DNA from: Strigamia acuminata
Taxonomy: Eukaryota
DNA length: 64,000 bases
Assembly (NCBI GenBank): GCA_949358305.1
Contig: OX442314.1
Coordinates: forward strand, 3,720,001-3,784,000
Direction of reading: 5' to 3'
Shown: in pieces, positions 2,961 to 64,000 of the stretch
Position numbering within the stretch: the stretch's first letter is position 1
Layout of the letters: each line of letters opens with the position of its first letter
Notes under the pieces: model-generated
The model's input: only the letters and a program-made list of their open reading frames with translations
Databases searched by the model: none
What the model was told of the DNA's origin: nothing
Made by a program: the position numbers and the translations under genes

Positions 2961-5271
2961 ATGAAGTCCGTTTTGGATATGCCGACTCTAACACACATTT
3001 CGCTCGTGAAAATTTCGCTTTTGTTATGGAAATACAAAGATAACAATATTTCTCTTATTCTGACCACTTGCACTAAATTTACGGCGGAGATTCACATGAG
3101 GCAATGGTTCGACTTGCAAGAAACACTTTGTAATCGAGTGCACGCTTTCGCCATTCCGGTGATTATAAAACCAATGTTGGATGCGTGTGTTAGGCACGTT
3201 GGAAAGCAATTTGTCGCGTCCTACTTGGTATAGGTTTAAATGCGCTAACGTGTAATACTTTACCTGTGATCTTACTAAATATGTAAATTACCCAAATGAA
3301 TACTAAGTATATGTAAATGAACAAATAGGTTTTATTCAATAGGCGTTATGCCTTAAATACACTCAGTATAAAAACTAGGGTCGATTTGGTCAGAGTCGAA
3401 CAAAGGATTTCTCAAGGTGGCGTCGTCGATTCCGCGTGGTCGGCGGAACAAAGGCGGCGTCTCGAGTTGTCGTTAATTCGTCACGGATTCGTCGTTCACG
3501 GATGCGGTGGAATGCTCTTTCGAGTCTTCTATCCGTGCCTGTTGTCTAGGGGTTGATTTTTAGCGTCTCAAGGCTCTGACCAGAAACGTGGAGTTTCTTA
3601 CAGGGCGCTCGAACACTTTAGTGGCGGAATAACCGTGGGTCGGTTATTCGATGTGAATTTTCAAGGGTTATTTTCCTGCTTTTGCGGGAAATAACACACA
3701 ATGTAAATTCATGAGAGTTACAGTTGCACTTGACTCAGCGGTCCTCGATCAATCCTAACTTGTATTTGAAGTTGGCCTGACGGTGAGGTAGTTGCTGTGT
3801 TATTGGTGTCGTTTTGTGTAAGTTCTGTCTTTAGGCGGGAAATTCCACCTTTTATAGGCCAGAGTGAGGGGCCTGGCTCGGCCAATGGGGACCGGCCACG
3901 GGCCACCTCACCCCCTCGGGGCACGCGCTTCCCGGGGGGGGGGGGGGGAGGCGGAGCCAGCGCGAGGGAACTGACCTTTCCTAGTGACTCACACGGATGG
4001 TATCTACTGGAGGGATGTCCACCCGCTGGGTCACCACAAATTGTGGGATTTGCTGAGATTCTTAATCAGAGAAGTTTTCAACGGCGCCACCTCCGTCGAC
4101 GTGAAATGTGCGAAAAGCATCATCCAATGCTCGCAATGGACACTCCACGGCCAATTAGACGCGGCCGAAACAGCACGAGTTATTTCACACTCGCAATGTT
4201 TGAAAACGATGTCGAGATTCGCCGTCGCCGTCGTGTGTTGCGTCGCAGACGTCGTCTTAGATATTTGGAATGAACACGCCGACAGTTTGCGAATACGTTT
4301 CGACAAGGTAAAAAAGTTCAACTTGAGAAGTATGATGTTTGAATTCTGGACAAGGACGATGATTAATAATCCCACTTACGACGAGAAATCGGAAATGTTT
4401 TTCCTGTGCGTAGACGAGACAAACCAATGCGGCGTGGAATACGTGTGGTCGCTCATGAGTCCGCTCGAAAGAAACGAGAGCGTCGAGCGACTCATTCAAA
4501 GCGAAAGTGCCTTGGAGGATTTGATCGATCACTTCAATTACGAGCCAAACTCCGAAGACTACGACAAACACAGCGATGATTGTTTCTGTACTTTCGAGAT
4601 GGGCATCACCAACTTTCTGCTCCGTTCTTAGCGACGAAACGGACGAGAGCCGGTGGGCGAGACTCGACAGGTTTTTCACCTTCACTTTTGCAAATGATAC
4701 AATGAGCAATGAGCTGAAAAAAGCGATAGAGGAAATGATTGAAAGATTTCGGAATTGGCTAATTCCCGAAACTGTGTCCGAACAACTGAGCGAGTGCGAG
4801 CTCAAAGAAAGTTTGCCGGCGCTGTCCGTCTATTTTTTGCAGGACTTCGAAACGACTGTGTTGTTGTTGAGGGACAATATGGGGAGCGAAAGGAGAAAAA
4901 TGTCGACTTGTTTTGACAAAATCTCTCGGATTATGGATGCCCGTCAAGCTGGAAAACTGGATAAAGATACTTTGCGAATACTTTCGCCGGACGACGAAAT
5001 GGCGGTTTTCAAGCAATTTTGCCGTTGTTTCGCTTACATGGCGTGCGCGGACTTGGCCGAGCGCAGTCAAAAGTCGATGCTAAAAGGGTTTGTGAACTCG
5101 TGCTTCGACAATTGTTCCGACATTGCGAGTTTTTGCATGAGGTGCTTGCCGTTTCAATGCGGGTACATTTTGCAAGATCATGAGGCCAGAATGCAAATCG
5201 ATGCAACATGCGCAGAATTCGGGTTTAGTCAAGAAGAAATCAAAGATATAAAGGCAACTTATATCGGTTAA
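2961..5271 (+). pseudogene. Disrupted paralogue of the 1-1506 gene
   Basis: Same N-terminus (MKSVLDMPTLTHISLVKI). It is interrupted by the solo LTR 3212-4038 and by a ~536-bp frameshifting deletion at ~4622 relative to the minus copy. The C-terminal part ends at TAA 5269-5271. Confidence 0.8.
3212..4038 (-). mobile_element. Solo LTR of the same family as the Gypsy at 53106-64000; TSD AATT
   Basis: TG..CA ends, AATT at 3208-3211 and 4039-4042, empty site in the paralogue at ~1251-1265 (cccacaattgctttcc), and colinear similarity to 53106-53925. Confidence 0.92.
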
Positions 5272-30354: not shown

Positions 30355-30558
30355 TATAACTTTGGAGTTTGGAAATTTTGCATTTCAGTAATATTTCCAA
30401 AATATTTTATGGACAAAAATCTAATTTTTTTGCAGTGTAAATATCAAAGAAATACCGGTAGCGAAATAAATAGAATAGAAATAGAATACAATGGAAATAT
30501 TTACCATGCCAAAATTTCTAGTTATTAGGAAACGGAATAAATATATATTACTTCTTAC

Positions 30559-31961: not shown

Positions 31962-32029
31962 CATCTTTCCAGGGAACAAACTCGTAACTTCAATCTGAAA
32001 AAACTGCAAGTAGCATCTCGAATTTAACA

Positions 32030-41588: not shown

Positions 41589-41813
41589 AAAAAAATTACC
41601 AAATTCTCCAGAAAAAAATTACCAAATTCTCCAGAAAAAAATTACCAAATTCTCCAGAAAAAAATTACCAAATTCTCCAGAAAAAAATTACCAAATTCTC
41701 CAGAAAAAAATTACCAAATTCTCCAGAAAAAAATTACCAAATTCTCCAGAAAAAAATTACCAAATTCTCCAGAAAAAATTACCAAATTCTCCAGAAAAAA
41801 ATTACCAAATTCT
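41589..41813. repeat. 23-bp minisatellite, 9 full units plus a partial, within a CTGCAGAA-rich element
   Basis: aaaaaaattaccaaattctccag in tandem; only 1-3 related units in the other copies (~10050-10100, ~27770-27880). Confidence 0.9.
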
Positions 41814-42981
41814 ACAAAATTCTGCAGCAAAATGTTAACCTTTTCTGCAGAAAAAATTCTGCAGAAAGCTTTTTCTGTCGAAAAAATTCCCCAGAAAGCT
41901 TTTTCTGCAGAAAAATTTCCCAGAAAACAGCAGAAGGCTTTTTCTGCAGAATAGTCTGCAGAGGTCAGCAGAATACTGTACAGAGTTCTACATCAGAAAA
42001 GGTTAACTATGTGCAGCAGAGCCAATACTAAATTAGTGTAAAATATAAAACAAAAATAAAACAAAACCACCAAAAAATAAACTAGCAAAAGATTTGATTC
42101 ACATTGATCAAATTTGAAAATTGCACCAAAATATCATCCAAGCCAATGACATAACTATAGGCATCAATAGCCATTTTAAATAATTGTGTTGTAAACACAT
42201 CACAGTCTATTCAAATTTTTATCTAAAGTCAAAATCAAATGCATGTTAATGCATATGTAAATAACTTTGAAAAGGCAGAGGGAATTCAATTCCTTGAAAG
42301 AAAAGTTCATAGTTTCAGATGGAAGAGGATGTATGAACTCACATCAATATCCATGGTGCATGATTTATTTATTTATTTATTTATTAAACTCACAACTTGC
42401 AGACAATTTAAAACAATTAAAGATTCAGGTTCAATGCAAGTTGGCTGCACTGCATTCGAGCAAAGTTGCCATTTTGATCAGATGGCGATAACTATTGGAA
42501 AGTGTTGACTGGACGAATCAAGGCAATTGAAGAACACTTAATGGCAGAAGAAACAATATTTGGTTGGAGCCTGCATGGCCAGACGACGAATGCAACTCCA
42601 TTCCTTGCAACACAGACGCATCGCATCAACCAAATTCACCCATCCAATGACGACATTCTTCGCCAATTTTGGGAATTAGAAGCTATTGTAGTAAAGCACG
42701 AATCAATAAACTCAACGGATGAAATGCAAGTATTGGAAAGATTTAATAATTCAATTAAATGGAAGGGAATTCAATTAAATGGTCGACATGCTGTGGATCA
42801 TCAATCCAGACGAACTCGAAGACGGGACTCTATAAAACGCGCGATATTCATATACGCGACGTCGCGGTTAAGAATAAAAAAGGTATTCATATACGCGACG
42901 TCGCGTATATGAATACTTATTATATTATATTATATTATATATATTATTATATGGCATTTCTATACGTGATTTTCTCAATTT

Positions 42982-45900
42982 TGTGGTGATCTCAAATATT
43001 TCACCAACTTAGAAGATAAATTAATTGTGTCTTCTAATTAATTTGACTGTGGCACACGCCAAGTCAGATCATGTGACGAAGGGGAGGAAACTTCCCTAGG
43101 CACATATCACCCCAGGTTGGCTGGGGTGAAAACGGTAATTAACCGTTATGGTGCAATATTGGGCAATAATCCTTTGTTGCACCAGTTTCAGCTAATTGCG
43201 CAGATTATCTGCGCAATATTGAAGCGTGCCGGGCTCGCGCCCTAGCTTCAATCGGGACTCTTGACTAAATACACAAACCACAAACATCACTGCTTTTTCC
43301 TCCTCTGAATTAGTATTGATAGTGGACCGTGTATTCCAAGTTTCACCAGCTTGCTTTGTAAAACGTACAAAGCCAGCTATCCTGCTTGAATTAGCCGTCG
43401 CTAATTCCAGCAATCGAACCGAGAAGTTTCCCGAAGTGACGTGAACCATCGCCGTCGCAGCAGCGCGAACTGTTGCCACCGCCATCGAACGCCAGTCGGA
43501 CGCCCGTGACCGTGAACCACCGCCGCCGAGCCGTCGTACGAGTTACGGAAGGACCCACGAGAACCATCGTCGCCAGGACCATCGTTCGTGAGTCGTATTA
43601 CGAAGACATTTTGTCTTCGAAACAACTTCCAGTTGTCAAGCGCCATCGCCGCGCTTTGTAGCTTGCAACAGTCGTTGCAAGCCCTTCCTTTGTTTTCCCG
43701 CTCATTATTTTGCGACATTGTCGCTTCGTATTACTTTCTTTCATTACTAGTCATTGTATAAAACCGAATAAAGAATATAAAGTGTGATTTTCATCTAATA
43801 AAACTGTCTCTTTATTTCTTTCTAATTAAATTAACCCTAGATAATTTACGGCCGCCGATTGTAAGTCTTTATAAGCATTCACCTGCGGTTTCCACTTGAT
43901 TTAATAGAAATTAAGTGTGAAAAAACCCGGATCGCAGCACGTGGGGGCCCGTCCGGGATATATTTCAATTGTATAAATTTTTGTCAGTTAAAATTTACCC
44001 GCCATTTTTATCTTGCTTGTCTTTCTTATCTTTCCTTTCTCTGTCTTCATTGAAAAATGGCGACACCAAGTGAAAAGAGACCACGAGGACGACCAGCGAA
44101 GAAACGATTGGCGATCGAATTACAAGTCGTGGATCCTGAAGTTCCAGCGATTGAAGAACAGTTTGAAGCTATGGATCAAACTGTGAGCGTGAACGACGGC
44201 ACGCCATGTTTGGAAGAACAAACGTCGCAACCGTTTAACGGCCAGTCGAATTTAAATATTCCGACTGGAAGCGGCTATTCCAAGCAACATAAAGATGATT
44301 TGAACGCGTCAACGCAAGTTCAATCATCTAGTGCCGAACATTCGATGCACTCATCACCTTTGCCGCTGCAAGGTAGAGAACCGCCCGACTCGGAGGTTTC
44401 TTCTTCTCCGATGCGTGTCACAATGATGGACGCACTTCGTGTGAAAGCTAAGCTCGCCGGAGTGGAAGTCATCGATGAGATGACAGTGGAAGAACTCCAC
44501 CAGGCAATGGTTGAAAAACATAGCCAAAAAGCAGTCGAAACGCTCAAGACTAGCTTGCAAATCGAGTTCGAAAGGCAACATGCTGCGTTACAACAGCAAA
44601 ATGCAGAACTTAAGCGACAACGTGCACACGATCATGTACAGTTGCTAAACTTCGAGCAGGAAAAGGCTTCATGGCTAATAACTGACGAAGAGCATCAAAA
44701 GATGCAACAGCAGCTAAATCAAGCCCAGAAAGATTTAGAGACTGCTAATGAGAATTTGAGAATTGCAAATTCCAATCTCATGACTGCCGAATTAAATTCA
44801 CAAGCTAAACAGAAGCAAGTTAACCCTTCTTCTCAACAGCTAGATCAATGTTCAGTAGAACAGGCAGCCAGAGCTAAGAGATTAGCTCAGCGAGAAAATG
44901 AATTATTTCTCGCTCAACAGCGGTCAGTAATTGACGCTGGTCAAAATGCTAGAAGTCTGAGCACTGCAGAGCAATTATTGCGTGCCGACTTAGCAGCCCA
45001 AGCTCGTGAAAACGAAATTCTTCGTGCCGATTTATTAAAAGCACAGGAAGAATTCGAGGAAGTTGTGCAACGTGTGCAAGCTACCTCAAGTGATTCGATG
45101 TTTGCAAAACCAAACCCAGTTTTGCAAAAAGGTGCTCCAAAATCACCTTCGTTGATTAATTTGAATTCAACTGAGTCGAAGCTCAGTCGCCAGTCCAGTT
45201 GGACCGATAGTGATGACTCGCGAAGTAGTCGTAGCAGCCGTGGCAGTCGTCATGGTCGCAAGAAGCGAAAACGACGACCGGACCCGACCGAATATCATCC
45301 GCCGAAAGCTTCGCAGAATACGGACCAGTTCTTTAGCAACAGTGACCGATTACTCGGAATGTTGGCTGACAAGAACAAACAGCGTGAGGAATCACGTGAT
45401 CATGGCCGAGCACATGATAATCCGCGAGATGGCTTGTCCAAACGTGGATGTCCCGAAGACATTCGAGACGGACCAAGATATCGTGGAGGTCCACCAGACG
45501 GAGATCCGCCTGGAGGGGACGACCCACATGGACATGGCAATGGCCACTCAGGTGGCCACAATTCGAATGGCAATCATGGTAGAAGGGGACCACCAGATGG
45601 AGATCGTGGTCCGCCCAACGACAACGATCCTCCTGACCCCGATCCGCCGCCAAATTTTGCGAATCACGAGTCAGCGTCCGATACTGACTCCCCACACCCA
45701 AGTGTGAGAGGGCGCTCGCGTCACAGAACGCGTGGTAGAAGCCCGAACCAAGCTTTTTATACGAAAACTGAGATTGACCAACTTTTGCGACAGAATGTCG
45801 GCAATCAGCAAAAGGACAGAAGAGATAAAGTCATTTTGCAAAAAATCAGCGAGTTCACATCCGACAAGTGGACTCATAGAGCGAACGATGAGAGATTTAT

Positions 45901-46334
45901 TCGATGGGATCGAGTAGTCCCTCGTGCCTATAATGGATCCTGGCGAGCAGGGTCCAATTTCTTACTAGAAGTATTTGAATTAGGCAAAGAGCACAATTTC
46001 GGTTGTGAAAGCGCTCTAGACCATCTAGTACCAAAAATGCTAGTCGGAGACGTCAAAGAATGGTTTCGTCGTCGAAACTTCACGAAGTGGGATGACTTCG
46101 TTACTAAATTTATGTTTAAATTTGGAGAATCGAGCGAAGACATCAAAATGCTTTGGAGAAGCTTAAAGCAACGAAAAGGCGAAAGCTTACATTCGTACAT
46201 GCTTAGGGCAGAGAATCTGCTTGGCAGGGTGCCTCATGAAGTAACCGATGCAACTGCCGACGATCAGTTTCGTGCTGGTCTCAACGAATATTCAAAAAAT
46301 ATTCTAATGATGTCTAACGCACCAGACCCTGGGA
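42982..46334 (+). mobile_element. 5' part of a Gypsy retrotransposon: LTR 42982-43939, tRNA-Pro PBS 43942-43959, gag; interrupted at 46335
   Basis: LTR matches the solo LTR at 26470. TGGGGGCCCGTCCGGGAT is the tRNA-Pro complement with one mismatch. Confidence 0.9.
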
Positions 46335-46339
46335 TGTGA
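44057..46339 (+). CDS. Large Gag (coiled coil, G/P/D-rich linker, capsid-like domain), 3'-truncated by insertion
   Basis: The C-terminal domain (YNGSWRAGSNFL...KEWF...WDDFVTKF...LKQRKGESL) aligns with the Gag at 61918-63999 (FDGSWKAGDRFL...REWY...WDDFLVRF...LRQAPGETL). Confidence 0.85.
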   Translation: MATPSEKRPRGRPAKKRLAIELQVVDPEVPAIEEQFEAMDQTVSVNDGTPCLEEQTSQPFNGQSNLNIPTGSGYSKQHKDDLNASTQVQSSSAEHSMHSSPLPLQGREPPDSEVSSSPMRVTMMDALRVKAKLAGVEVIDEMTVEELHQAMVEKHSQKAVETLKTSLQIEFERQHAALQQQNAELKRQRAHDHVQLLNFEQEKASWLITDEEHQKMQQQLNQAQKDLETANENLRIANSNLMTAELNSQAKQKQVNPSSQQLDQCSVEQAARAKRLAQRENELFLAQQRSVIDAGQNARSLSTAEQLLRADLAAQARENEILRADLLKAQEEFEEVVQRVQATSSDSMFAKPNPVLQKGAPKSPSLINLNSTESKLSRQSSWTDSDDSRSSRSSRGSRHGRKKRKRRPDPTEYHPPKASQNTDQFFSNSDRLLGMLADKNKQREESRDHGRAHDNPRDGLSKRGCPEDIRDGPRYRGGPPDGDPPGGDDPHGHGNGHSGGHNSNGNHGRRGPPDGDRGPPNDNDPPDPDPPPNFANHESASDTDSPHPSVRGRSRHRTRGRSPNQAFYTKTEIDQLLRQNVGNQQKDRRDKVILQKISEFTSDKWTHRANDERFIRWDRVVPRAYNGSWRAGSNFLLEVFELGKEHNFGCESALDHLVPKMLVGDVKEWFRRRNFTKWDDFVTKFMFKFGESSEDIKMLWRSLKQRKGESLHSYMLRAENLLGRVPHEVTDATADDQFRAGLNEYSKNILMMSNAPDPGM

Positions 46340-51345: not shown

Positions 51346-51585
51346 ATCCAGACCAGACCAGACGACGTGTTCCAGAGTCATCTTGACCACGCCGTCCCGA
51401 TTTCAGTCACGATTCGAATTTTGTGTGCCGTGTAACCTGCAAAAGCTAACACGTGTCAAACAAACGCGAAGTTTAATTTTATTTTGTCAAAAGTAAAGTT
51501 TAGAAGTGTTTCTTGTTGAAAAGTGTATTATATTCGTCTTCTTTATAAATTAAAGAATTAAAATCGTCAGATTTTGAATTTTTTT

Positions 51586-52971
51586 ATGGCTCAAAAACCA
51601 TTGAATATGATCGATCCAAAAGGAAATAATAAGCAGACAAACTTAAATTTAAGTTCTGTACCACTTGGCGATCAAACAGAAAAGATTCCCGATCATTTTA
51701 CTCTGTATTGTAATCGTCATGGACTGGATAAAACCAAGTTTAAAAATATAATCGAAGCTTCAGACTATGTAAAAGCTAGGAACTGGCGAGATCGTACCCA
51801 ATCTCAATCTTCACATCAAGATCCAGTACGGAATCCACAAACATACAGCCGAAACTTAGTGAATCAAGATTCTCATACTATGTTTCAAACATCCAGTAGG
51901 GGATCTAAGTTAGAAAAGTTTAAACCACCTAATTCGGTAGATAAGGGGGAAGAGAATTATAAACCTAATAATTCTCATCCAGAGAGTTCGTTAACTAACC
52001 AGTCGGTTGTTCAGAACAAATTAAAACTCGTTTACAATCGAGATCAGCTAATTTCAGTTCGATATGCTAATCCAGCTGAAGCACAACGATATGTGGCTAG
52101 CCTTAATCTGTCGATTAACCTACCGTTATCAAAAGAATTGGGAACCGTAAACAAAAGTTTTGGGCCACCAATATCAACACAAAAGAAAGATGTTCGAGCT
52201 GTAAACAAACGTTTGCTGTCGCCGAATCCCTGCGATGGATTTACAACTTCGTTTTCCAATCCCACGAAAAAGAAGAGTAGTTTGCATACTCCAAACAAAC
52301 GTTTGCAGTCAAATAACTTACAACAACGTGCCCGATCGCCAATCACAAACTCATGTTTGCGGACGAATGATTTGTCTACCAAGAAGAGTCCCCAGCCAAG
52401 ACAATTCTACCTAACACCCATTTCAAATCGGAAAAGGTTCAAACAAACTCTTTTTCCCTTGGAAAAGTATTACCAACACGATACGAGTACAAAAACAATA
52501 GTTTCAACTACTCAAATAAGAGGACCGTTCGATGGAACGTCTCAGGAAAAGAATACTTTCATCACAAAACCGAAAGTTGAAAAAGTCTTGCTCAGTCGGT
52601 TTAATACTAGTTCAACCAGCAATGAGACCAACAAATATAAATATGGTGAGACTGGCTTACACCATTCTGTTCCTGAAGCTACAAATTCACAAGAGGCCAC
52701 CTTCACTTATGTCAGGAAATGTTTTCATTGTAAACAACCGGGACATACCAAACAAGATTGTCCCACATGGTCTAAACGAAAATTTAATGACCAACGTAAA
52801 AATTTTGATTATTCAAATGTGTCAAAAGACTCATTTAAACGACCCCGACAAAATTGGGTCACCACCGAAGTATTAGAACAACGGTTTACGGAAATGGAAA
52901 ACAGAATAACTGCAGTTATTAATAAGTCTATGTCCGACTTATTTGAGAAGCTTTCTCAACACAAAATGTAA
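51586..52971 (+). CDS. Basic S/T/N/K-rich protein with one CCHC zinc knuckle (461 aa from ATG), probably retroelement-encoded
   Basis: Intact ORF in AT-rich DNA; CFHCKQPGHTKQDC; C-terminal coiled-coil-like segment; no capsid motif recognised. Confidence 0.7.
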   Translation: MAQKPLNMIDPKGNNKQTNLNLSSVPLGDQTEKIPDHFTLYCNRHGLDKTKFKNIIEASDYVKARNWRDRTQSQSSHQDPVRNPQTYSRNLVNQDSHTMFQTSSRGSKLEKFKPPNSVDKGEENYKPNNSHPESSLTNQSVVQNKLKLVYNRDQLISVRYANPAEAQRYVASLNLSINLPLSKELGTVNKSFGPPISTQKKDVRAVNKRLLSPNPCDGFTTSFSNPTKKKSSLHTPNKRLQSNNLQQRARSPITNSCLRTNDLSTKKSPQPRQFYLTPISNRKRFKQTLFPLEKYYQHDTSTKTIVSTTQIRGPFDGTSQEKNTFITKPKVEKVLLSRFNTSSTSNETNKYKYGETGLHHSVPEATNSQEATFTYVRKCFHCKQPGHTKQDCPTWSKRKFNDQRKNFDYSNVSKDSFKRPRQNWVTTEVLEQRFTEMENRITAVINKSMSDLFEKLSQHKM

Positions 52972-53969
52972 GATCAAAAGATTTCCCGATTTCAGAGTAA
53001 CAGAAAAATCCTTTCTCTATAAATCATGACCTCGTTTTCTAAAGAAAAGGGGAACAAAATATAAAAGTTAGAATTAACAAAATTTTGAAAGGTAATGCTA
53101 CATTATGTCGCGTCCTACTTGGTATAGGTTTAAATAGCGCTAACGTGTAATACTTTACCTGTGATCAATTATGTAAATACCCAAATGAATACCAAATGTA
53201 TGTAAATAAACAGGTAATTTATTCACCAGGCTTTATGCCTTTAAAATACACTCAGTAATAATTCTAGAGTCGACGTGGTCAGCGTCGAACAAAGGATTTC
53301 TCAAGATGGCGTCGTCGATTCCGCGTGGTCGGCGGAACAAAGGCGGCGTCTCGAGTTGTCGTTAATTCGTCACGGATTCGTCTTCACGGACGCGGTGGAA
53401 TGCTCTTTCGAGTCTTCTATCCGTGCCTGTTGTCTAGGGTTTGTTTAGCGTCGCAGAGGCCTCGTCTAGGAACTTTGGGGTTCCCTACAAAGCACTCGGA
53501 CACTTACTTCGGCGAATAATCGTCTGGGCGATTATTCTGGGTGATTTCACAAGGGCTATTCTCGTGCTTTCGCAGGAATAGCTCGCAAGTGACTTCGTGA
53601 GAGTTACAGTTTGCACTTTACTCAGCGATCCTCGATCAATCCTAACTTGTAGTTGAAGTTGGCCTGACGGTGAGGTAGTTGCTGTGTTCTTGGTGTCGTT
53701 TGTGTAAGTTCTGACTTTAGGCGGGAAACACAGCCTTTTATGCAGTGGGGTGAAGGGCCGGCGATCAACCAATGGGGGCTGACCATCAGCCGCTTCCTCC
53801 CCCTCGGGGCACACACCTGCCATGGGGAGGTGGAGCCAACTCGGGGGGGAACGACTCTTCAATCACAGTGACTCAGAGGACAAGCATCCGCCCTGGGGGG
53901 ACACTTATCCAACTGGGTCACCACACGTCCCTCCTCCAGCTTCGATCTCGGATCGGAGCGATCTCAATT

Positions 53970-56900
53970 TTATCGCTCTCCTCTGCGAAGAGCCGGCAGC
54001 ACTCCTCTGCATGGGCGGAGGATCACTGGTGGCACTGCCGGGGGCGGCGGTGGTAAATCCGGGGGCAGAGAGGTTGTCAGATCCGCAGGATTCTGTCGCT
54101 CGTTGATGAAGTACTGCGGGTGACCGCCGACCGGCTCGCCAATCAGTCCCGTACGTTCGTGGATCCAAATCCGGGTGGATGCCGGGAATCGGTCGGGAAC
54201 GAGCCGGATCCTTCGCGACTCGGCGCTCGATCCGGGTTTCCGGTGGGCTCGCAAGATTCGGCGATGGAAGACGGCGTCCATGGTAGATCGGGCCTCTCTG
54301 TTCAGCCATTTGAGGACCGACTCGCCGTGATCATCGGAGTCAATGATGCGTTGTCGCGTGAACTCCGACATCTGAAGGAAGGGGTATTCCACTCCTAGCC
54401 TCAAATAAAGCTGCGCTGCTGGGGGCAGCGGAGGCGATGGAGGAAGTGGAATCTCCATTGGACTCTCCAACGGTGGCGTAGCCGGCTCTGTTGTAAGAGC
54501 GGCCAGCTCTGCCGCTGGTGGCGAAGGAGAGGGCAGCGGAGGAGTTCGCGGTCCTCGGTTGGAGCGCTTCGGAATCAATTTGGGTCGATTCGCATACCGC
54601 TTCTCCTTTGGGAATACCGGCTTTGGGGTCGGTATGTATGGTTGGACCGCCGCCTCTGGGGGGGCGGTCTCGATGGCCTGTGGGAGGCTCGCTGTCGTTC
54701 CCGGTATCTCCGGAGCCTCCCGAATTGTTCGCAACAAGGAAGGGTGGACTCCGGGGTTCCGGTAGCGGAATGCCAACGAACGCATCTTCGAAAACTGCAG
54801 GCCTGGGTTCTCCGTATTCCTGGCCAGGTCGAAGCGCAGCGAGGCGGGCTCAGGAGTCCATCCGGCCCATACCTGGTACAACGCCCGAGGAAGGTGAACT
54901 CCCTCACGGTCGACGATTGTCCAGGCCGCCATAGCCTGCCGACTGTCCAAGAAGACGCCCAGGGACAGCAGCTGGGCCATGACGTTCGTCACTGCCAAAT
55001 TCAAACCGCTCCGATGGCAGGGGTGAGCGCGGTCCGGATTGCCACTGAATTGTTGTGACAGCGTCCGCATCTGTTCGATCGCCCAATTGATGTGGTGGGT
55101 TTGGGCGGCGTCGGCCTGTCGTATGGCCAACTCGGCAATCGCGGGGTTCTCGTATTCGGCCAGATATTCTTGTAGCTCGCTGAGTGGGGGATAGGCCGCT
55201 TCACGCCGGCATCGAGCGTCCATCTCTCGCTGGGCGTACCATTCGGCGTTGCGATAAGGTCGACACACTCGTGGCGTTGGGGGTGACGGTGGACGGCCCA
55301 GCCCGGGTAGATTATCGTATCTGACCCGCTTCGGAGCTGGATCCCCCACCGGAATCATCCGGGGAGGGGTCCAAGCGGTCACGGCTGGGTTTGTACCCTC
55401 GAGGAGTGGCGGCCATCGCGATTGCACTTGTGGGGGCACAAGCGCGGTGGGCACAGCCGGTGTTGAGCCCGACGGCCGGTTGGCCGCGTATCCTCGGAAG
55501 GCGTTCTTCAATGCTACGGCCAGATCCTGTTTTGTAACCGGCCCATCTTTGTCCGACTCATCTGGGGACATTTGCTCTTCCGTCAACTCTCCCAAATCAA
55601 TCTCTGCTTGGCGCCTGGACGGTCCAGCCGTGGGTCCGAGACTCTGGGGTTCGGACCGTTTCGCGGCGGCCATCTCTCGCTCCTTCTCTAATCCCTTAGC
55701 TATCAGGGATTGTGCTCGCAACTTCTGACGTACTTTGCGCTTTCGATTCCTCCGGGTGCTGGCTGCGACGGATCTTCGTTGGGCCGTCCTCTGGGGGACG
55801 TCCGTCGGAGAATTCGGTCTCTGGTGTGATGAGACGGTTCGTCGCGACGAGGATTGATCTGACGACTGTGTGGTAATCGCCATGAACAACGAGGATCTTT
55901 TCTTTCCTCGATCTTGGTGTGTCTCGGTCCTCGCAGCCCAGTGGGCGGAAGATTCGACTGTTCGCTCAGCCCGCGCGTCGTCTGGCGAGGCAGGCTCGAG
56001 CGTTACTACTCGGCGACACTCCGAGCGCACGACAACTCGAGTTCGGGAACTGGAGCTGCTCGAGCGGCTGCGGTAGTCGCGGCTCGTTGACGGGCCGGCC
56101 TCTATTGGGGAGACGGCCTGTCTTCTTCGTGCGGGTCCGCGTGGGGCGGACTCCGCCGGACGCTTCGATCTTCTGTGATGGCGGCGGCTTCCCAGGATAC
56201 CAGCGTGGTATAACTGCCACATCTCAGACTGCGTGGCCGTAAAATTCGCCGGCGGTATCCATCTGGGTGTCAGATGATCTTCTTCGATGTCGCGAAGCCA
56301 TCTACGGATTTCTTCGGGGGAGAAACCGTTTCTCTCGAGAACTCGGGTTACTCCGTGAGTCTCGGTGCGCTTTAAGCGTTTGATCTCGTCGTCCACTATT
56401 CTCTGGCGGGCTGCCAAGGTCGGGGCCTCGCTCCACCTATGGGAGGTGTGCAGCTCGGCCACCGTGCCTGGGTAAGCCTCTTCCAGGTACCCGGAGTAAA
56501 CGGGGCTCGGCGGATCCGCATCGGGTGGGATCCGCGGCCCCACTCGCTCCCTCATCTCCTTCGTCATGCACTCGACCAGCGTTTTTGATCGCTCGAATTT
56601 TTCCTCGAGGGTCCTGGAATACATCAATCGGATTTTCCAGGCGCTGGTCTCTGCAGGATAGGCCTGCCGCAGGTAAATCGGCAGGGCTCCGCGAAAGATG
56701 TTGTTGGCGGTTGACGCCGTCGGAGGCAGGGCGTCCCACGATTCTAGCGGGTCGACCTGAATAATTTTAGATCACAAGATTAATATAATAAATCCCAGTT
56801 AACGATGGGGATCAGAAATATGCTCAAGATCGACGGTGGCAGCAACTCCTTTCTTTTGTTGCGGCCGTCGGTCTTATTTTCTTGTTTCGCAGTTCTGCGA

Positions 56901-57434
56901 TGATCTCCGCCGTCGTAGCGCTGATCCAACACTACTTTTGAACTCAGGTGATCCGCTTTTTTGGAAGGGGTCGCAGGCAAAACCGATCGTTAAATTTTAA
57001 TTTCTTACGCTAAACTTTTTTATTTTAACTCTAATCGTATTTTAATTTATTACGATGTTTAAATTTAAAAGAAAGAAAACCTTTAGTTTTGGTTTTGGTT
57101 TGCCACGACGCCATTCCGCGAACACTTCCTTTGTTCTAGTTTTTTGGCGGCCTTGACTCCGAGGTGAATCTGGGTCCACTCTCGGGTTTTTAGCCAGCCT
57201 TAAATCAACAATAAAACAGAAAGAAATATATCAGTCACAAGTCACGCTCCAATCTGGGTTGGATGCAACAGATTCAAAGAATTATGTGATTTCTCTGGGG
57301 AAATCACACTAATTTACCTGCAACGGCGGTTGTTCGTCCCAATTCTCATCTTCTTCTGCATTTACGATTAGGCCGTCGCTCTCGTCTCTCGACGATGCGC
57401 TCGGCTCTAATCGTGGGTTGCGTCGATCGGCCAT
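53970..57434 (-). CDS. Predicted spliced ORF3, ~967 aa, non-Env, function unknown: exon 1 57434-57318, exon 2 56756-53970
   Basis: The 885-aa ORF stays open 43 codons further upstream to ttattcag|GTC. An upstream 39-codon exon (aaaATGG; MADRRNPRLEPS...PPLQ) ends at CAG|GTAAAT. Both junctions are phase 0. Confidence 0.75.
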
Positions 57435-57814
57435 TTCAATTTAGGAAAATGAAGTTTTGTTTGAGAGGTCTTTGTCTTTCTCTTTGGGGGAGAAGCAAAA
57501 ACACGTCTCGTCGTGTTAAAAACAGTCGGAAACTGGGCCTATCGACGCTGAGAATTGTGGGTCTCGAACGCGTCTCGTATTTTGCGAGATCCGCCGTGCT
57601 GGCAATGACGCTACGGGGTCGACCGCGTGGTTTCGTTGTCACGTGGTCGCCCGCTACGTCATAACTTCTCGTCTGTTAGTGGTGACTGCGACAATTCGTT
57701 GCGAAGTTTGGATTTAGCTAATTTTTCGCGTCTCAACATGTGCAGCAGCTCTCGTAAGTAAATCTTTTTATTTTACAAGGCCTCCGCTCCATGTTATCAC
57801 ATTTTCTTTTATTT

Positions 57815-60800
57815 TTAGTTCTTCCCCACGACTTTGCCGTCCCGAATGAACGGATTATTGCTTCGTCGTGGTCGAAGGTTGATTTTCGACGTGCTCGTAG
57901 ATCGTGACTCTACTTGCTCGTTCATCTCCGATGTGTTGGCATTTTTCTCATTACTAATTTTTTTATTTTCCATTTCAGAAGTACTTTCTTCTGCTTCCTC
58001 CCTCTCCGAAATTGCTTGCTCCGGCTGTGCTGGAGCCTCGTCGGCCGGAGATTCGGCGTCGAAGAATTCATCCTCGTCCTCCGCTATATTTTCAGCTTCA
58101 TTTGTTTTTTGGAACGTGTCGACCACGGTGCCCCCTTGGCCGCTGTGTGTCTGACCTTCCAGCCAGATTTCTTGGGGAAACTCTGGCAGATATGGCCTTA
58201 AATCTCGGCCATGTATCGACTGAAAATTTTTGTTGTCCTCTAAGCGGCGTAGTTGGTATGCGTTGCCGCCGTGTTCGGCCACAATTACATAGGGACCGTC
58301 CCTCTTGTCGGCTAAACCTGCGGCGATGCCCCTCGCTGCATTGGACAACGTGTGTGCCTCCTTCCACACTAGATCATTCACTTTAAAGTTCGCGAAAGCG
58401 AGATCGCCTTCTTTATCTGCGATTCTTTCTCTCATGTTGAAAATATGCGCCATCATATGCTGGTATGTGTCGGATATAGTCTGTTCCAACCGGCACACGT
58501 ACTCGTGTGGGCTCGATGGGTCTAATACGTTAACAGCTTCGGCAACGCGTGGGTCCCATGGCATCCTTAATTCGCGGGCGAAGTTGAGGTACGCCGGTGA
58601 GAATTCGCGTGTTCTTGACACGGTTGAGCGAATGCTGAAAGCGATTTCTCGCAGGTATTCGTCCCATCGATTGTGAATATCGGTGAATACTGTCAGCGCA
58701 TATTTTATGTCTTTATTTAATCTCTCGACTGGGTTTGTCTGAGGATTATACGTGGAGGTGTTTGATGCATCCATTTTAAATTTTCTACAGAAGTCCTTAT
58801 ATATTCTCGATCGGAATTGGGGCCCGTTATCCGAAATGAGTTTTCTGGGAAACCCAAATCGCATTGCCACGTCGTAAAGGCACTCGACTATGTTTTCAGC
58901 CGAGGGCTTCGCGAAGGCGTACAGCTCCGGCCATCGGGTGGCCACGTCCATAATTACGAGAATATACATGTTCTTGTTTCCCGTTGTGGGCTTGGGGCCC
59001 ATCAAGTCTATGCTTAAGCAGTCAAACGGTGCGTAGGGTCCGAGAGACATGGCGTTTCTGGCCACTTTATCTCGCGGTCTGCACGCTTGGCACCGGGGGC
59101 AGTGTCGGATAAATTTCGTTATCTTTTGCCGCGCGCCCGGCCAGAAGAAAAGTTGTTTTACTCGATAAAGGGTCCTCGCCACGCCAGAATGGCTGGCGAG
59201 CGGGTGTCCGTGCATCAGCCACAACAGTCGGGTGTGCAGCGATGCCGGCACGACCACTTTAACCGAGTTTCCCGCTCCGCTGAGGTCATCTTGAAACGTC
59301 GGGTGGTATTTTACCAGGAGTTCATCATCTATGAGGTAGCTTGTTGCTTCTTTGACGAACTGTTTCCGGCGGTGTGGGTTTGTCATCCCTTCCGGAAATT
59401 CGCCGTTCAGCAAATATTGCGTTATAATTTGACATTTTGTGTCTGCTGCCTGGTGTTCGACGAACTCACGTCTCGTGGGTGGAGCGTATTGTGTTTTTTC
59501 TTCAATTTTTGCTGTGAAGGCGCGTAGTAGTGTTTTGTGGGTTTCTCCGGGGGGCGGAGATTGAATTTCGGATGTTGAATTGTTTGTCCCAGCTGGCTGG
59601 TATGTTCGAGTCCAAAAACCACAAAACGTTCTATCTTCAGGCTCCATCACTGGTAGCTCGTTCGCCTTTCGCAAACGCCATATTCTCCGTGGAGTCGGGC
59701 AGTACAAGAGGTGGGTGTCGTCCTCGCCGTCGTCGTCTGGTCCCTGGGGGTCAGAGGCTGGGGCTCTCGAGAGGGCGTCGGCCACATGATTGTACTTCCC
59801 GGGGCGGTACGTAATTGTTATATCGCACGCCATTAACTCCAGTTGCCATCGTGCGAGTCGGCCGGAGGGTTCCTTGAGCTTCATCAACCAGCTTAGTGCC
59901 TGGTGATCTGTCTGAACCTCGAAGTTCGTGTACTCCAGATAGTCGCGAAATTTCCGAACTGCCCAAATTACGGCTAGGCATTCTAGTTCCGTTGCCGTAT
60001 AATTTTTCTCCGCGCCCTGTATTTTTCTGCTTATAAACATACAGGGTACTTCTTGCGAGATTCCGTTGTACACGTGGGTCTGCAGAAGGGCTGCACCCAG
60101 TCCGATTTTACTCGCGTCGGTGTGCAACACGAACGGTCGGTTTAGGTCCGGCAATGGCATCTTTTCGACGTCAGCCAGCATTTGCTTGATAGTGCTAAAT
60201 GCGGCCTCGCACTGGACCGTCCACTCAAACTCTTTATCCGTTCGTAAGAGATCCGTTATAGGCGCGGCCACTTCAGCCAGACCAGAGAGTAGTCGGCCGA
60301 AGAAATTGACCATGCCCATGAATCTCTGGACACCTTTTATATCTTCGGGGGCGGGGAATCCGTTTATTGCTTTGACTTTTTCGGGGTCAATCGCGATTCC
60401 CTCGACTCCTATTCGATATCCTAGGAAGGCAAGCTCTTTCCTGCAAAACTTGCTCTTCCCTGGATGGATGTGGAGTCCTGCCTTGGCTAGGCGAGAGACC
60501 ACTCTATCGATGTGGTCTATATGTTCTTCGAATGTGTCCGACGTTATTATGATGTCGTCGAGATACGCCCACACGAAGTCGTGCAGCATATCTCCCAACA
60601 CGCTTTCGATCAGTTTCTGGAACGTGCTCGGGGCGTTTACAAGCCCGAACGGCATCACGTTGAACATTAGTCTTCCTATCGGGGAGTAGAAAGCCGTTTT
60701 CAGTTTGTCTTCGGGTTTTAGCTCCACTTGCCAATACCCCTTTGACAGGTCCATGGTGGTTACCCACTTGAACGGGCTCAGTTCCCGGAGGATCGAGTCT

Positions 60801-61951
60801 ATAGACGGCATCTGAATCGGGTCTATAACCGTTATCGCGTTCAGGGGGCGATAATCAATGCATAGTCGAGGTTCCGAGCCTGGACGCATCACCAGGACGA
60901 TCCGCATGGCGTATTCGCCCAGGGCTTGCGTTACTATGCCCTTGTCGAGCATGTCTTGGCACATTTGCGTCACGATGTCTCTTTTCTGGGGGTTCATCCC
61001 CTTGTAAGGCACTCGAATCGGCTTGTCTGTGGTTAAGACTATTTCGTGTGTTGCTTCCGTCGTTCGACCAGGTGTCTTGGTCAGAATTCTTTCATGCTTT
61101 CGAAGCACTCGCCTTAGTAGCGATGCCTCGTTAACACGCAGTGCTGCCTCCCCGACCAGGGTGTCCACGACGTTACTCCTCTGTAATTCCAGAGTGAAGG
61201 CTGCGAAATCGTAATCTTGGACGAATTTTCGCAATCCTCTTCCGTATTCCTCTTTGTCCTTGGCTTCGTCCAGTAATTTTTGGGGAACTACGGGGACTGA
61301 CCGTTCTCCCTCGGGACTTATCCAGTTCCATGAACGGGTTATCGGGTTTGGCTGAATTTTCAGTTTCGCCATGATGTCCATCCCTAGGAGGAATACTTTG
61401 TCGTGGGATGGCAAGACTATGAAGGGGTGGGACAGGTTCCCCCCCGTCCAGTCGATCATGATGCGAACTACGCCCTTCGGCTTGACGTAGCCGTTGGCGG
61501 TGAGCAATTCTACGTTCGCGTTCACTTGTGCCACCTTCTTTCCAATATCCAAGTCTTTTACTATATCTTCGGATATGAATGAACGATCCGCTCCTGAATC
61601 CAGTAGACCGAACAATTTTTGGTTTTCTATCTCCACTGGCAGCATACACAGAGTTTCGCAATGTGCTTTCGTGACATTGCAGTGAAATACGCGTAATGTC
61701 TGGGGCTCAACCTCCAGATTGAACGGAAGGTCCGTCCAATCCATGTCGACCTCCGGTTTCGTTCTCACTTGCATACTCGTTAACGTCACTTTTTCCTCCT
61801 TCTTCGGAACGATCTGTATGCGGTCTTTGATCTGTGCCTCTGCCAAGGCATGACCTGCGGGTCCAGTGTGATATTTCTTCTTTTTAATTTCCGCGGCTGG
61901 CGCAGACGAAGCTGAATTTATTCCGGCGACGCCTGCGCTTGGAAGTTTTTT
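57815..61951 (-). CDS. Gypsy Pol (PR-RT-RH-IN), expressed by -1 frameshift
   Basis: LLDSGAD, YLDD, LHTDAS, HHCC, IDLMGP, ISDNG, NPVER, GPY; the frame is open back to the slippery site. Confidence 0.95.
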   Translation of the reverse strand, partial: KKLPSAGVAGINSASSAPAAEIKKKKYHTGPAGHALAEAQIKDRIQIVPKKEEKVTLTSMQVRTKPEVDMDWTDLPFNLEVEPQTLRVFHCNVTKAHCETLCMLPVEIENQKLFGLLDSGADRSFISEDIVKDLDIGKKVAQVNANVELLTANGYVKPKGVVRIMIDWTGGNLSHPFIVLPSHDKVFLLGMDIMAKLKIQPNPITRSWNWISPEGERSVPVVPQKLLDEAKDKEEYGRGLRKFVQDYDFAAFTLELQRSNVVDTLVGEAALRVNEASLLRRVLRKHERILTKTPGRTTEATHEIVLTTDKPIRVPYKGMNPQKRDIVTQMCQDMLDKGIVTQALGEYAMRIVLVMRPGSEPRLCIDYRPLNAITVIDPIQMPSIDSILRELSPFKWVTTMDLSKGYWQVELKPEDKLKTAFYSPIGRLMFNVMPFGLVNAPSTFQKLIESVLGDMLHDFVWAYLDDIIITSDTFEEHIDHIDRVVSRLAKAGLHIHPGKSKFCRKELAFLGYRIGVEGIAIDPEKVKAINGFPAPEDIKGVQRFMGMVNFFGRLLSGLAEVAAPITDLLRTDKEFEWTVQCEAAFSTIKQMLADVEKMPLPDLNRPFVLHTDASKIGLGAALLQTHVYNGISQEVPCMFISRKIQGAEKNYTATELECLAVIWAVRKFRDYLEYTNFEVQTDHQALSWLMKLKEPSGRLARWQLELMACDITITYRPGKYNHVADALSRAPASDPQGPDDDGEDDTHLLYCPTPRRIWRLRKANELPVMEPEDRTFCGFWTRTYQPAGTNNSTSEIQSPPPGETHKTLLRAFTAKIEEKTQYAPPTRREFVEHQAADTKCQIITQYLLNGEFPEGMTNPHRRKQFVKEATSYLIDDELLVKYHPTFQDDLSGAGNSVKVVVPASLHTRLLWLMHGHPLASHSGVARTLYRVKQLFFWPGARQKITKFIRHCPRCQACRPRDKVARNAMSLGPYAPFDCLSIDLMGPKPTTGNKNMYILVIMDVATRWPELYAFAKPSAENIVECLYDVAMRFGFPRKLISDNGPQFRSRIYKDFCRKFKMDASNTSTYNPQTNPVERLNKDIKYALTVFTDIHNRWDEYLREIAFSIRSTVSRTREFSPAYLNFARELRMPWDPRVAEAVNVLDPSSPHEYVCRLEQTISDTYQHMMAHIFNMRERIADKEGDLAFANFKVNDLVWKEAHTLSNAARGIAAGLADKRDGPYVIVAEHGGNAYQLRRLEDNKNFQSIHGRDLRPYLPEFPQEIWLEGQTHSGQGGTVVDTFQKTNEAENIAEDEDEFFDAESPADEAPAQPEQAISEREEAEESTSEMENKKISNEKNANTSEMNEQVESRSTSTSKINLRPRRSNNPFIRDGKVVGKN
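61900..61951 (-). promoter_or_regulatory. -1 programmed ribosomal frameshift signal
   Basis: A_AAA_AAC in the gag frame (61951-61945), a 6-nt spacer, then stem gcgcaggcg/cgtctgcgc; the -1 frame joins pol. Confidence 0.85.
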
Positions 61952-63999
61952 GCCAGATCAGTTCTTAACTCCATCATCATTTTCATCATGGTTTGCATGA
62001 TGTCCTTTTCTTTGACGGTTTTCTCACATTTATCTGAGTAGTGGCCGTATTCTCCACAGCTGTAACATTTGATGTTACTTTTATCCCCTGTGGGAGTGAA
62101 TCCCGGTTTTTTCGGGACGAAGGGCGTCGGGAATCGTCTTTTTCCTCCCAATGCTCCTCTCGCTTTTGTTGCTTGCACGTGTGCTCTGAATTGTGTGATT
62201 GCCAAGGCCCGGTGTGCATGGTGCAAATAGGGACCTTGATCGTCGCATCCCGTCGATAAGTTTTCGAGGTGCTCATTTAGGGCTTCCTCGTCGCTCGATG
62301 CTGGCTCCTCTTCTTTAGCCGTGGCGAGAGGTGTTGTCTCTTCGACTTTCTCCATCTGGGTGGAGTCCGTCGAGGTCACCTGCATCGCCGTCGCTGCCGG
62401 TGCTTTCTTTGGGGCAGCTATCGGGTTGGCTGGAAGAATACTGCCTGCTTTAGGCGTCAGCATTCGTCCGAAGGATGCTTCGGTGAGACTCATTATGCCG
62501 CTCAAATATTCACTTGGCCTCATTAATTTTTCTGAGGTCTTGTGGCGTTCGGCGCTCGTCTGCAACCGCTTCTCGTGCGCGTCAGCTTCTTCCGGGGGCA
62601 GAGTGGCGTAATACCGCTGTTCTATTTCTAACGTGTTTGTTAGAAGATAGTTACTGACATCTTGGTAATCGCCAGTGCGGGGTGCACGCATGTCTAGCAG
62701 AATTCTTTGCGAGTGGGCCGATAATCCTCCGTAAAAGATCATCGTAAAACCAGCGGGGTTTATTTCGTACGGCGCTCTTGCAAACAGGAGTTTCGCTCGG
62801 GCGTCGTAGTCGGCTAATGTTTCTCCTGGGGCTTGTCGTAGACCCCGTAATTTGTTACTGATCTCGTCTGGAGTCTCGCCGTATCGGAGATCGAAACGGA
62901 CGAGAAAATCGTCCCAGGTTGGGTTTTTCAGTCCCTGGTACCATTCTCGAGCTGACCCCGTAGTTAGCTCCACTAGCCCGTGGGTTAGCATGTCGGCGAC
63001 GGTGGCTTTTGTCGCTTTCTTGATACGCATTACTTCGTCCAGGAAGCGGTCTCCGGCCTTCCACGAACCGTCAAATCGCGTTTGAATATAGTGTTGCCAG
63101 CGGATGTTACCCGTGGCTTCACTGCTTGGTTCGTTTCGTACGCCATATTTGCGCTTAACCCTCTCTCCAGCGCGATTATGTTCGTCGCCTGGATGGCCTA
63201 GATCGATTCCTTCTCTTCTGAAAGAGTTCAGCAGGGCTCGGCCTAGCTCAGACATCGTGTAATGTCGGCCAGATGAGTCCTGAAAGTTCCCTTCCTCTGA
63301 ACGAGGGTTGGAGCTCCGGGAAGAGCGGTCTGAAGCATTCGGCCGGTTCGACCGGTGCCCATCGCTGCCTTCTTGACTCCTTCCTGTAGACGGTCGACTC
63401 GGATGGTCGTCGTCCGACGAATCGGAGGGCTCGGAGGGATCTCCTTGGGGGTGAAACCTCGGCCCTCTCGGTGGGGTCTCTCCGCCAGCCTTCTTCTGTT
63501 TCGAGCCTTCGGATGGCGGCGGCTCCCCTCCGTCGTTGTTCTCGCAAAAAGAATGCCATCTGTTTTCCTCGCTCTCGGGGCGTTCCCGATTTTTATTTGC
63601 GTTTTTCTTTTCGAGTAACGCGTCGATGGCTGCTCCCGTCTCGGATCTTTTTGAGGGGTGACGGTCCTTTGTTTTTGGGACCGATCCGTCTCTCTTTTGA
63701 GATTTCCCCCTTTTTGCCGTTTTTGCCGGCTTTGCTGCATCTTCTCCTGTGTCGGTATCAGAGCCGCTTGGGGGTTCTGACTTCCGTTTCGGGTTTTCTT
63801 CCCTTTTCTTCCTGCCCGAGACACCTTGTTCGTACTCTTTTTGGAACTTTTCTGTTTCTTTCTCCCAGTTTTCGGCTTCCCATCTTTTTTGCTCATCTAT
63901 TATGGCTTGTTCCTTTGCTTTGTACTCTTCGGTCCATCTGACTCGGTCCCATTCCTCTTTCTCTTTCAGGAACTGTTCCTTTTCTTTTCTGGCTTCCTC
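61918..63999 (-). CDS. Gypsy Gag, 5'-partial (>=690 codons)
   Basis: The frame upstream of M63255 is stop-free to the window edge (E/K coiled coil, G/P/D/S linker); capsid-like domain; CCHC CYSCGEYGHYSDKC. Confidence 0.9.
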   Translation of the reverse strand, partial: EEARKEKEQFLKEKEEWDRVRWTEEYKAKEQAIIDEQKRWEAENWEKETEKFQKEYEQGVSGRKKREENPKRKSEPPSGSDTDTGEDAAKPAKTAKRGKSQKRDGSVPKTKDRHPSKRSETGAAIDALLEKKNANKNRERPESEENRWHSFCENNDGGEPPPSEGSKQKKAGGETPPRGPRFHPQGDPSEPSDSSDDDHPSRPSTGRSQEGSDGHRSNRPNASDRSSRSSNPRSEEGNFQDSSGRHYTMSELGRALLNSFRREGIDLGHPGDEHNRAGERVKRKYGVRNEPSSEATGNIRWQHYIQTRFDGSWKAGDRFLDEVMRIKKATKATVADMLTHGLVELTTGSAREWYQGLKNPTWDDFLVRFDLRYGETPDEISNKLRGLRQAPGETLADYDARAKLLFARAPYEINPAGFTMIFYGGLSAHSQRILLDMRAPRTGDYQDVSNYLLTNTLEIEQRYYATLPPEEADAHEKRLQTSAERHKTSEKLMRPSEYLSGIMSLTEASFGRMLTPKAGSILPANPIAAPKKAPAATAMQVTSTDSTQMEKVEETTPLATAKEEEPASSDEEALNEHLENLSTGCDDQGPYLHHAHRALAITQFRAHVQATKARGALGGKRRFPTPFVPKKPGFTPTGDKSNIKCYSCGEYGHYSDKCEKTVKEKDIMQTMMKMMMELRTDLAKNFQAQASPE

Positions 64000-64000
64000 T

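Follow-up and report, generated by a model that had tools for sequence, protein, structure and literature searches.

An apparently undescribed, non-envelope third gene with a predicted two-splice layout in a Ty3/Gypsy retrotransposon of Strigamia acuminata

The minus strand of positions 53106-64000 in a 64,000-nucleotide stretch of Strigamia acuminata DNA (contig OX442314.1; the whole stretch is called the window, and all positions refer to it) holds the 3' part of a Ty3/Gypsy long terminal repeat (LTR) retrotransposon, in surroundings that are transposon-dense and AT-rich. Between pol and the 3' LTR this element carries a long third open reading frame (ORF3), which we hold with high confidence to be a real gene encoded by the element. 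The product, which would total 967 amino acids from two exons (39 + 928 codons), is not an envelope protein (Env) on the features tested. Two domains, A and B, both predicted to be helical and shared with a single metagenome protein (P0001), define what is apparently an undescribed protein family, which is not represented in Pfam, in NCBIfam or among the PDB sequences. The sense-strand layout, with two predicted splices and an ATG in a small exon that follows pol, is apparently undescribed as well. The product is likely to be a nuclear regulator of some kind.

The third frame and its homologue

The first-pass annotation of this DNA, made from the sequence alone, had described a GC-rich frame of 928 codons between the pol stop at 57815 and the polypurine tract (PPT), and our analysis bears this out. 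The frame extends from stop to stop over 56771-53970 (933 amino acids), and 928 codons follow the CAG at 56757. The additional ORFs of LTR retrotransposons are in general marked by a long frame in the interval from pol to the 3' LTR, and the element has one. When sequences were shuffled at the same base composition (n=500), the longest ORF had a median of 174 and a maximum of 349 amino acids. The long exon has a GC content of 0.61, the ATG exon one of 0.56 and the intron one of 0.39, compared with 0.52 in gag and 0.51 in pol. Antisense frames over ORF3 (156-219 amino acids) were taken as shadows of the GC-rich frame, and no search was made with them.

P0001, the sole match to ORF3 among 1.84 billion representatives (E 6e-08), is a JGI 'hypothetical protein' of 525 amino acids on a 2,921-bp contig. 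Domains A and B occur in the same order in both proteins, and their linkers differ greatly in length and composition. Residues identical in the two proteins include W7, P11, those of a GxLP motif at 23-26 (G23, L25 and P26) and the SAW triplet at 38-40 (S38, A39 and W40). Domain B is significant when aligned alone, with a score of 90 against a mean of 46.5 and a maximum of 76 in shuffles (n=300). AlphaFold2 gave domain B the same run of helices in both proteins, in models that are both weak (mean predicted local distance difference test score, pLDDT, of 43 for P0001 and 41 for ORF3). The ORF3 model has helical blocks at about residues 14-183, 327-365, 504-679 and 779-834, and the product has long Pro-rich and Ser-rich disordered stretches. 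A two-domain match with divergent linkers is the pattern of a translated and selected protein, here as judged from one homologue. This homologue already largely refutes the reading that the frame is an untranslated chance product of GC-rich sequence, which we regard as negligible. The low confidence of the structure models would suit such a product, as would an ESM Atlas recognition of 1255 against 2300 typical of known families, a score that is no indicator of whether a gene is real; the shuffles and the existence of a two-domain homologue speak against it.

ORF3 could instead be a recently captured gene of the host or of another element, carried in this copy as a passenger that does nothing for the element. 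The examination covers one copy, the P0001 contig could be non-retrotransposon DNA, and the GC content of ORF3 exceeds that of gag and pol. However, no annotated host homologue was found among the 1.84 billion representatives, the frame stops only 33 nt from the PPT, and capture through an mRNA would normally strip introns. The codon usage of ORF3 is also best correlated with that of its own gag-pol (r 0.64; with four other element ORFs of the window, r ranged from -0.21 to 0.51), which is partly a GC effect. We consider the passenger explanation quite improbable. The first-pass annotation had named a clear match to a known fusogen or a captured host gene as a result that would count against it, and none appeared in Pfam, in PDB or among the 1.84 billion representatives.

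Searches for other relatives gave the following results. Pfam returned 0 families at E<=1 for the ORF3 product or P0001, which covers Rev, Rex, RNA-binding and DNA-binding domains as well as the GDSL esterase, DEDDy exonuclease and TRP28 domains. NCBIfam gave nothing credible, the PDB sequences gave 0 matches for either protein, and Rfam gave 0 matches in the element RNA. Foldseek, a check that had been proposed for the ordered blocks, was run with the low-confidence models of ORF3 and P0001 and returned nothing at E<=0.001 in BFVD or PDB. Structural alignment of domain B with VIA-align retrieved generic helical bundles only, for example a designed protein (Z 7.4, root mean square deviation 3.0, 90 aligned residues), and the best was a BAG domain (Z 8.5, root mean square deviation 2.4, 86 aligned). 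These scores are under the level that the tool treats as meaningful for bundles; therefore the BAG match is not taken as a sign of Hsp70 binding. The ESM Atlas held no usable match for ORF3. A word search with ORF3 yielded 0 of 7990 candidates, a query with domain A of P0001 retrieved only P0001 among 59, and a 20-codon degenerate motif had 0 viral matches. When pattern scans were checked by tblastn, 0/24, 0/96 and 0/8 were confirmed, and 0/10 for Pol. None of the 111 loci with the domain A motif (2 viral and 109 metagenome, 80 of the latter with full flanks) matched ORF3, P0001, Gag or Pol (tblastn E<=0.05). Two loci, L009 and L059, reached E 0.002 and 0.008 against a two-sequence profile and were rejected, as they had been selected by the motif and were without reverse transcriptase (RT); the match of L009 was the motif region only. 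An ORF3-like region was found in 0 of 127 Pol relatives, and no second copy of ORF3 occurs within the window. A text search (not by sequence) of open-licence PMC and bioRxiv literature did not find the element, the protein or the two-splice layout.

The position of ORF3 is that of an env gene. The F-type and gB-type env genes of errantiviruses are likewise a third ORF after pol and are expressed from a spliced subgenomic RNA (PMC12992720; PMC13524379). As described in these sources, errantivirus Env has a signal peptide, a fusion peptide, a Cys framework and a membrane anchor, none of which is found in ORF3. Its mRNA is made by one splice, from an ATG exon upstream of or within gag, whereas ORF3 has two predicted splices and an ATG exon past pol. 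By hydropathy (no dedicated predictor was run), the ORF3 product has no N-terminal hydrophobic signal and no C-terminal anchor, and its N-terminus is acidic and polar. The maximum 19-residue hydropathy of 1.65 falls in a helix of a conserved domain, away from the C-terminus. The product has 1 N-glycosylation sequon and 6 Cys, of which only 1 aligns with a Cys of P0001, and neither the Cys framework nor a fusogen profile of F- or gB-type Env was found. The ATG frames between pol and ORF3 encode polar or basic peptides of 1-41 amino acids, unlike a small transmembrane fusogen of the sORF2 or FAST-like type (Gypsy/mdg1). Thus the third gene was rightly called non-Env in the first-pass annotation.

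A related explanation is that ORF3 encodes a cytoplasmic particle or transmission factor, either a non-fusogenic helper that serves assembly, transport or spread between cells, or a strongly diverged substitute for Env. The env position, the predicted env-like subgenomic splicing (PMC12992720) and the single 19-residue window at 1.65 fit this explanation. The missing signal and anchor do not, nor do the hydropathy peak of P0001 (1.33), the poorly shared Cys, the single sequon, the lack of any Pfam family, and motifs resembling nuclear localization signals (NLS) in both proteins, and we judge it improbable.

Splice signals and the predicted transcript

The conserved residues W7 to W40 precede Met45, the first ATG past the acceptor at 56757, and the upstream stop of the frame lies just 5 codons before that acceptor; therefore an upstream coding exon is required. 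The first Met of P0001 is 50 residues ahead of the first conserved Trp, and in the two-exon ORF3 product the distance is 45. Such an exon had been put forward in the first-pass annotation, with 39 codons, a CAG/GTAAAT donor, matched phase and a 561-nt intron, and all of these signals were confirmed, the splicing itself being predicted. The splice from 57317 to 56757 very probably joins the small and main exons. The ATG at 57434 has the context gaaATGg, and its 39 codons run to the donor at 57317. Of the 440 GT sites on the sense strand of 53106-64000, just 2 lie within AGGTAA: one is a donor in the LTR, and the other, the small-exon donor, is the best consensus match in the internal region (8/9). 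Ahead of the acceptor at 56757, 66 nt are free of AG (joint third among 779 AGs), and its upstream AT-richness is third among 258 YAGs.

The small exon had previously been taken as a first exon with its own promoter, a view that we revise, since the exon is probably internal. The acceptor at 57482, separated from the ATG by 47 nt, ranks first among the 779 AGs for pyrimidine fraction (15/16) and has a branch-like TTTAAC; its use would bypass all 4 ATGs between pol and 57434. The LTR donor, CAG/GTAAAG, is 52 nt from the LTR end, in a block that matches at 56 of 57 bases between the 3' LTR and a solo LTR of a related family (81% overall). The LTR leader, 556 nt between the initiator-like site and this donor, is free of ATG where 8.2 would be expected. 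The 5' LTR and the primer-binding site lie beyond position 64000, and the 3' LTR was used as the stand-in for the 5' LTR throughout. Because of the acceptor at 57482 and the rare, conserved LTR donor, an LTR-started doubly spliced mRNA is likelier than one from a promoter of its own, and we regard LTR-driven double splicing (LTR leader, small exon, main exon) as moderately probable from these signals. Transcription could instead start at an internal promoter in the segment from pol to the ATG exon, as in Tor elements or foamy viruses. Direct splicing from the LTR to 56757 was rejected as the main route because translation would begin at Met45 and the conserved residues would be lost. A weaker phase-0 donor in gag at 62379 would allow a minor Gag-ORF3 fusion.

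At the predicted N-terminus of P0001, residues 8-20, with PPFFVG just ahead of Met20, may represent translation of a pyrimidine tract and acceptor comparable to those at 57482. Several segments of 120 nt in 57860-57341 (-) and 53610-53171 (-) folded more stably than shuffles (z -3 to -5.5; 40 shuffles per segment, about 48 segments, uncorrected). The stable folds include the ATG exon and the surroundings of the LTR AATAAA, with local hairpins at z < -4 after pol and in the LTR, and are candidate regulatory or response elements.

Candidate functions and known systems

Classical K(K/R)x(K/R) NLS-like motifs lie between domains A and B in the ORF3 product and P0001 alike, from which we infer a nuclear location; in P0001 a regex scan found KSKKRR and RPKKAR there, in a Lys-rich linker. 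The first-pass annotation, which noted R/S-rich sequence, had proposed an accessory nuclear or RNA-binding factor. Of this, the nuclear part probably stands, and the R/S-rich and Arg-rich stretches, such as RRNRKRKVRQKLR at long-exon residues 335-347, are not kept in P0001.

Two predicted introns have to be retained in the genomic RNA, and precedents exist in CERV and in Rev, Rex and Rem; therefore a trans-acting regulator of unspliced RNA was chosen as the specific role, which we propose tentatively. ORF3 would then be a nuclear regulator of the element's own unspliced RNA, through export or splicing control. Transcripts would start from the 5' LTR, and a first splice would cross gag-pol, from the donor close to the LTR end to the acceptor at 57482. 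The ATG would come from the 39-codon exon, to which the second splice would add the main exon. The fully spliced message would leave the nucleus without help. Its soluble product of 967 residues would act in trans in the nucleus, like Rev, Rex or C. elegans CERV, and would most likely let unspliced genomic RNA accumulate and be exported.

CERV, from C. elegans Cer1, is a 517-amino-acid nuclear protein that is made from a spliced mRNA and is required for export of the unspliced genomic RNA (PMC10309623). Like ORF3, it is an accessory protein of an animal LTR element with an NLS (in ORF3 and P0001 at the level of motifs), structured domains joined by flexible linkers and, in the description given there, no homology outside its group. 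The two are likened by description and not by sequence. In CERV, exons 1-3 are in the gag frame, and the protein has a Cys finger and a GTPase-like domain (PMC10309623), whereas ORF3 lies between pol and the PPT with a predicted ATG exon of its own, and its low-confidence models are mostly helical. Rev, Rex and Rem of complex retroviruses are made from doubly spliced mRNAs, and these proteins and Tat, Tax and Tas are regulators that arise from doubly spliced mRNA or, within the 3' half of the genome, from an internal promoter (PMC12789967), which ORF3 resembles by its predicted signals. However, ORF3 is without a Pfam match, is much larger and belongs to an env-less Ty3/Gypsy element. Rev, Rex and Rem are also marked by a conserved Arg-rich motif and a family profile; ORF3 has an Arg-rich stretch that is not kept in P0001.

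Several points weigh against a regulator of unspliced RNA expressed in this way. First, the Arg-rich and RS-rich stretches are missing from P0001 (net charge +9 compared with +37 in ORF3; RS/SR pairs 8 compared with 22). Secondly, no Rev, Rex or RNA-binding domain was matched in Pfam and no Rfam element was found, and the ORF3 product is much larger than Rev or Rex. Third, P0001 is a single homologue, with 0/24 and 0/8 pattern matches confirmed by tblastn. Fourth, all of the junctions are predicted from sequence, with the 3' LTR substituting for a 5' LTR outside the window. The acceptor at 57482 is AAG and not YAG, a leader free of ATG would be equally useful to gag, and the solo LTR carries a single ATG in this stretch. 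In addition, the region after pol is CpG-rich and has promoter-like motifs. Lastly, simple retroelements can export unspliced RNA by cis elements alone, such as the constitutive transport element (PMC12789967).

The CpG-rich region bears on a different nuclear role, in which ORF3 would be a transcriptional activator or an anti-silencing factor, similar to Tas or Tax or to the additional ORFs (aORFs) of plant elements, perhaps expressed from an internal promoter before the ATG exon. The NLS-like motifs in both homologues and the long Pro-rich and Ser-rich disorder are consistent with this role. The observed/expected CpG ratio is 1.62 in 57814-57482, compared with 1.0-1.2 in gag, pol and the LTR, and the same segment contains TGACGT and CACGTG, motifs known from promoters. 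Internal promoters serve the third genes of Oikopleura Tor elements (PMC4402516) and tas/bet of foamy virus (PMC12789967), and GENE23 of Grande is nuclear (PMC7264820). However, the window as a whole is not CpG-depleted (1.19), and therefore the excess after pol says little. Splicing from the LTR is a better fit to the strong acceptor that precedes the ATG exon and to the conserved LTR donor, which would otherwise go unused, and no DNA-binding family was matched in Pfam. PxVxL-like and PxDLT-like chromatin motifs in the C-terminal tail of ORF3 would also suit an activator, but they are missing from P0001 and were discarded as evidence. An activator or anti-silencing factor is a minority possibility, though little less likely than the regulator of unspliced RNA.

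Third genes other than env are known from other elements as well. The bdelloid LTR elements Vesta and Juno carry family-specific non-env third genes, as does the present element, but theirs encode recognisable enzymes, a GDSL esterase and a DEDDy exonuclease (PMC5408684), whereas ORF3 matches no family. Plant aORFs (Grande gene23, Retand TRP28 and sense aORFs) resemble ORF3 in being orphan, sometimes nuclear and proposed as regulators, and in lying between pol and the 3' LTR (PMC7264820; PMC11963269). In these accounts the nuclear plant aORFs are antisense, some with their own promoter; ORF3 is sense and intron-bearing, and has no TRP28 domain. With the bdelloid enzymes, the plant aORFs and CERV already established, a class of non-env third genes is therefore known.

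The export of intron-bearing genomic RNA and the escape from silencing are understood in few LTR retrotransposons only, and CERV is the one protein-based animal example found in the literature consulted (PMC10309623). If the proposal for unspliced RNA is true, ORF3 would be a second, unrelated and much larger accessory protein from a doubly spliced mRNA, the complex-retrovirus strategy would have arisen repeatedly among Gypsy elements, and position alone would not justify annotating a third ORF as env. The broadest form of the proposal is speculative, and we hold it at low confidence: an env-less animal Gypsy lineage would have independently evolved a programme in the style of complex retroviruses, with an LTR-started doubly spliced mRNA and a new two-domain nuclear family that either determines what becomes of the genomic RNA or protects it against small-RNA silencing.

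The element and its neighbourhood

The coordinates of the element are collected in Table 1. Its pol domain order (protease, RT, RNase H, integrase) is the Gypsy order, gag lies 5' of pol, and the PPT adjoins an LTR of the TG...CA type, all as in Ty3/Gypsy elements. The closest Pol relatives are ~45% identical in RT/RNase H, and the named ones (fish, tick and pseudoscorpion) about 35-45%. The Gag knuckle matched PF00098 at E 0.0028, under the curated cut-off of Pfam. By the rule for slippery sites, the gag/pol overlap is predicted to hold what resembles an intact -1 frameshift signal, and gag (to the window edge), pol and this signal are all unbroken. The ends of the 3' LTR are confirmed because the solo LTR, 81% identical, has AATT on both of its flanks (4038-3212). 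The LTR donor is ~65 nt past AATAAA (53223-53158, -); in the 5' LTR, U1 binding at this donor could suppress premature polyadenylation, as in retroviruses. Gag may resemble that of the Osvaldo lineage of Gypsy. Osvaldo LTRs are ~1-2 kb (997-2055 bp in Culex; PMC3286476), longer than the 820 bp found here, and short-LTR relatives of Osvaldo are mentioned in the same source.

Table 1. Features of the element and a related solo LTR, in window coordinates.
Feature	Positions	Strand	Basis or remark
gag, 5' end beyond window edge	61918..63999	-	open frame of 693 amino acids; CCHC knuckle near C-terminus
Predicted -1 gag-pol frameshift signal: A AAA AAC (61951-61945) + 9-bp stem (61938-61900)	61900..61951	-	fold -20.7 kcal/mol
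pol (protease-RT-RNase H-integrase), stop-free	57815..61957	-	ORF list and Pfam
Predicted upstream acceptor: TTTAAC (57520-57515), pyrimidine tract, AAG ending 57482	57482..57520	-	top pyrimidine fraction
Predicted small exon: 47-nt ATG-free leader, ATG 57434, 39 codons, donor CAG/GTAAAT	57318..57481	-	sequence signals
Predicted intron, 561 nt, phase 0 to 0, GC 0.39	56757..57317	-	sequence signals
Main ORF3 exon, 928 codons + stop; first in-frame Met is codon 45	53970..56756	-	ORF list, sequence
Conserved domain A, long-exon residues 6-108	56433..56741	-	~30% identical to P0001 69-171
Arg-rich motif RRNRKRKVRQKLR on predicted long helix	55716..55754	-	sequence, AlphaFold2 model, alignment; absent from P0001
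Monopartite NLS-like motif PAPKRVRY just before domain B	55317..55340	-	regex scan
Conserved domain B, residues 525-644, predicted helical bundle	54825..55184	-	23% identical to P0001 317-436
PPT, 33 nt past ORF3 stop	53928..53937	-	sequence
3' LTR, 820 bp, TG...CA	53106..53925	-	sequence and LTR comparison
3' LTR signals	TATA-like box 53742; initiator-like TCAGAA ~53714; AATAAA 53223; donor CAG/GTAAAG 53158	-	sequence
Solo LTR of related family, 827 bp, 4-bp AATT target duplication	3212..4038	-	81% identical to 3' LTR; donor kept

Other retroelement frames occur in the window. A gag-like frame of 761 amino acids at 44054-46339 (+) is 30% identical over 174 amino acids to the Gag core of the element, and no relative of pol or ORF3 follows it within the window. 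A frame of 469 amino acids with a CCHC knuckle (PF00098) at 51562-52971 (+) stops ~135 bp short of the 3' LTR end and is encoded on the other strand. Long unbroken retrotransposon frames at 13746-17849 (-), 18513-23456 (+) and 31988-37219 (+) are by eye copia-like, Gypsy and BEL/Pao, with identical direct repeats on either side of the first and of the third. A repeated gene family of ~500 amino acids, with no Pfam family above the cut-off, is present at 1-1524 (-) and 3975-5271 (+) and as pieces near 9351 and 12403, and the solo LTR abuts the 5' part of its second copy (3975-5271). A dispersed repeat with internal 23-nt tandem arrays lies at 41542-41839, with related copies at 9707-11871 and 26003-30992, in both orientations.

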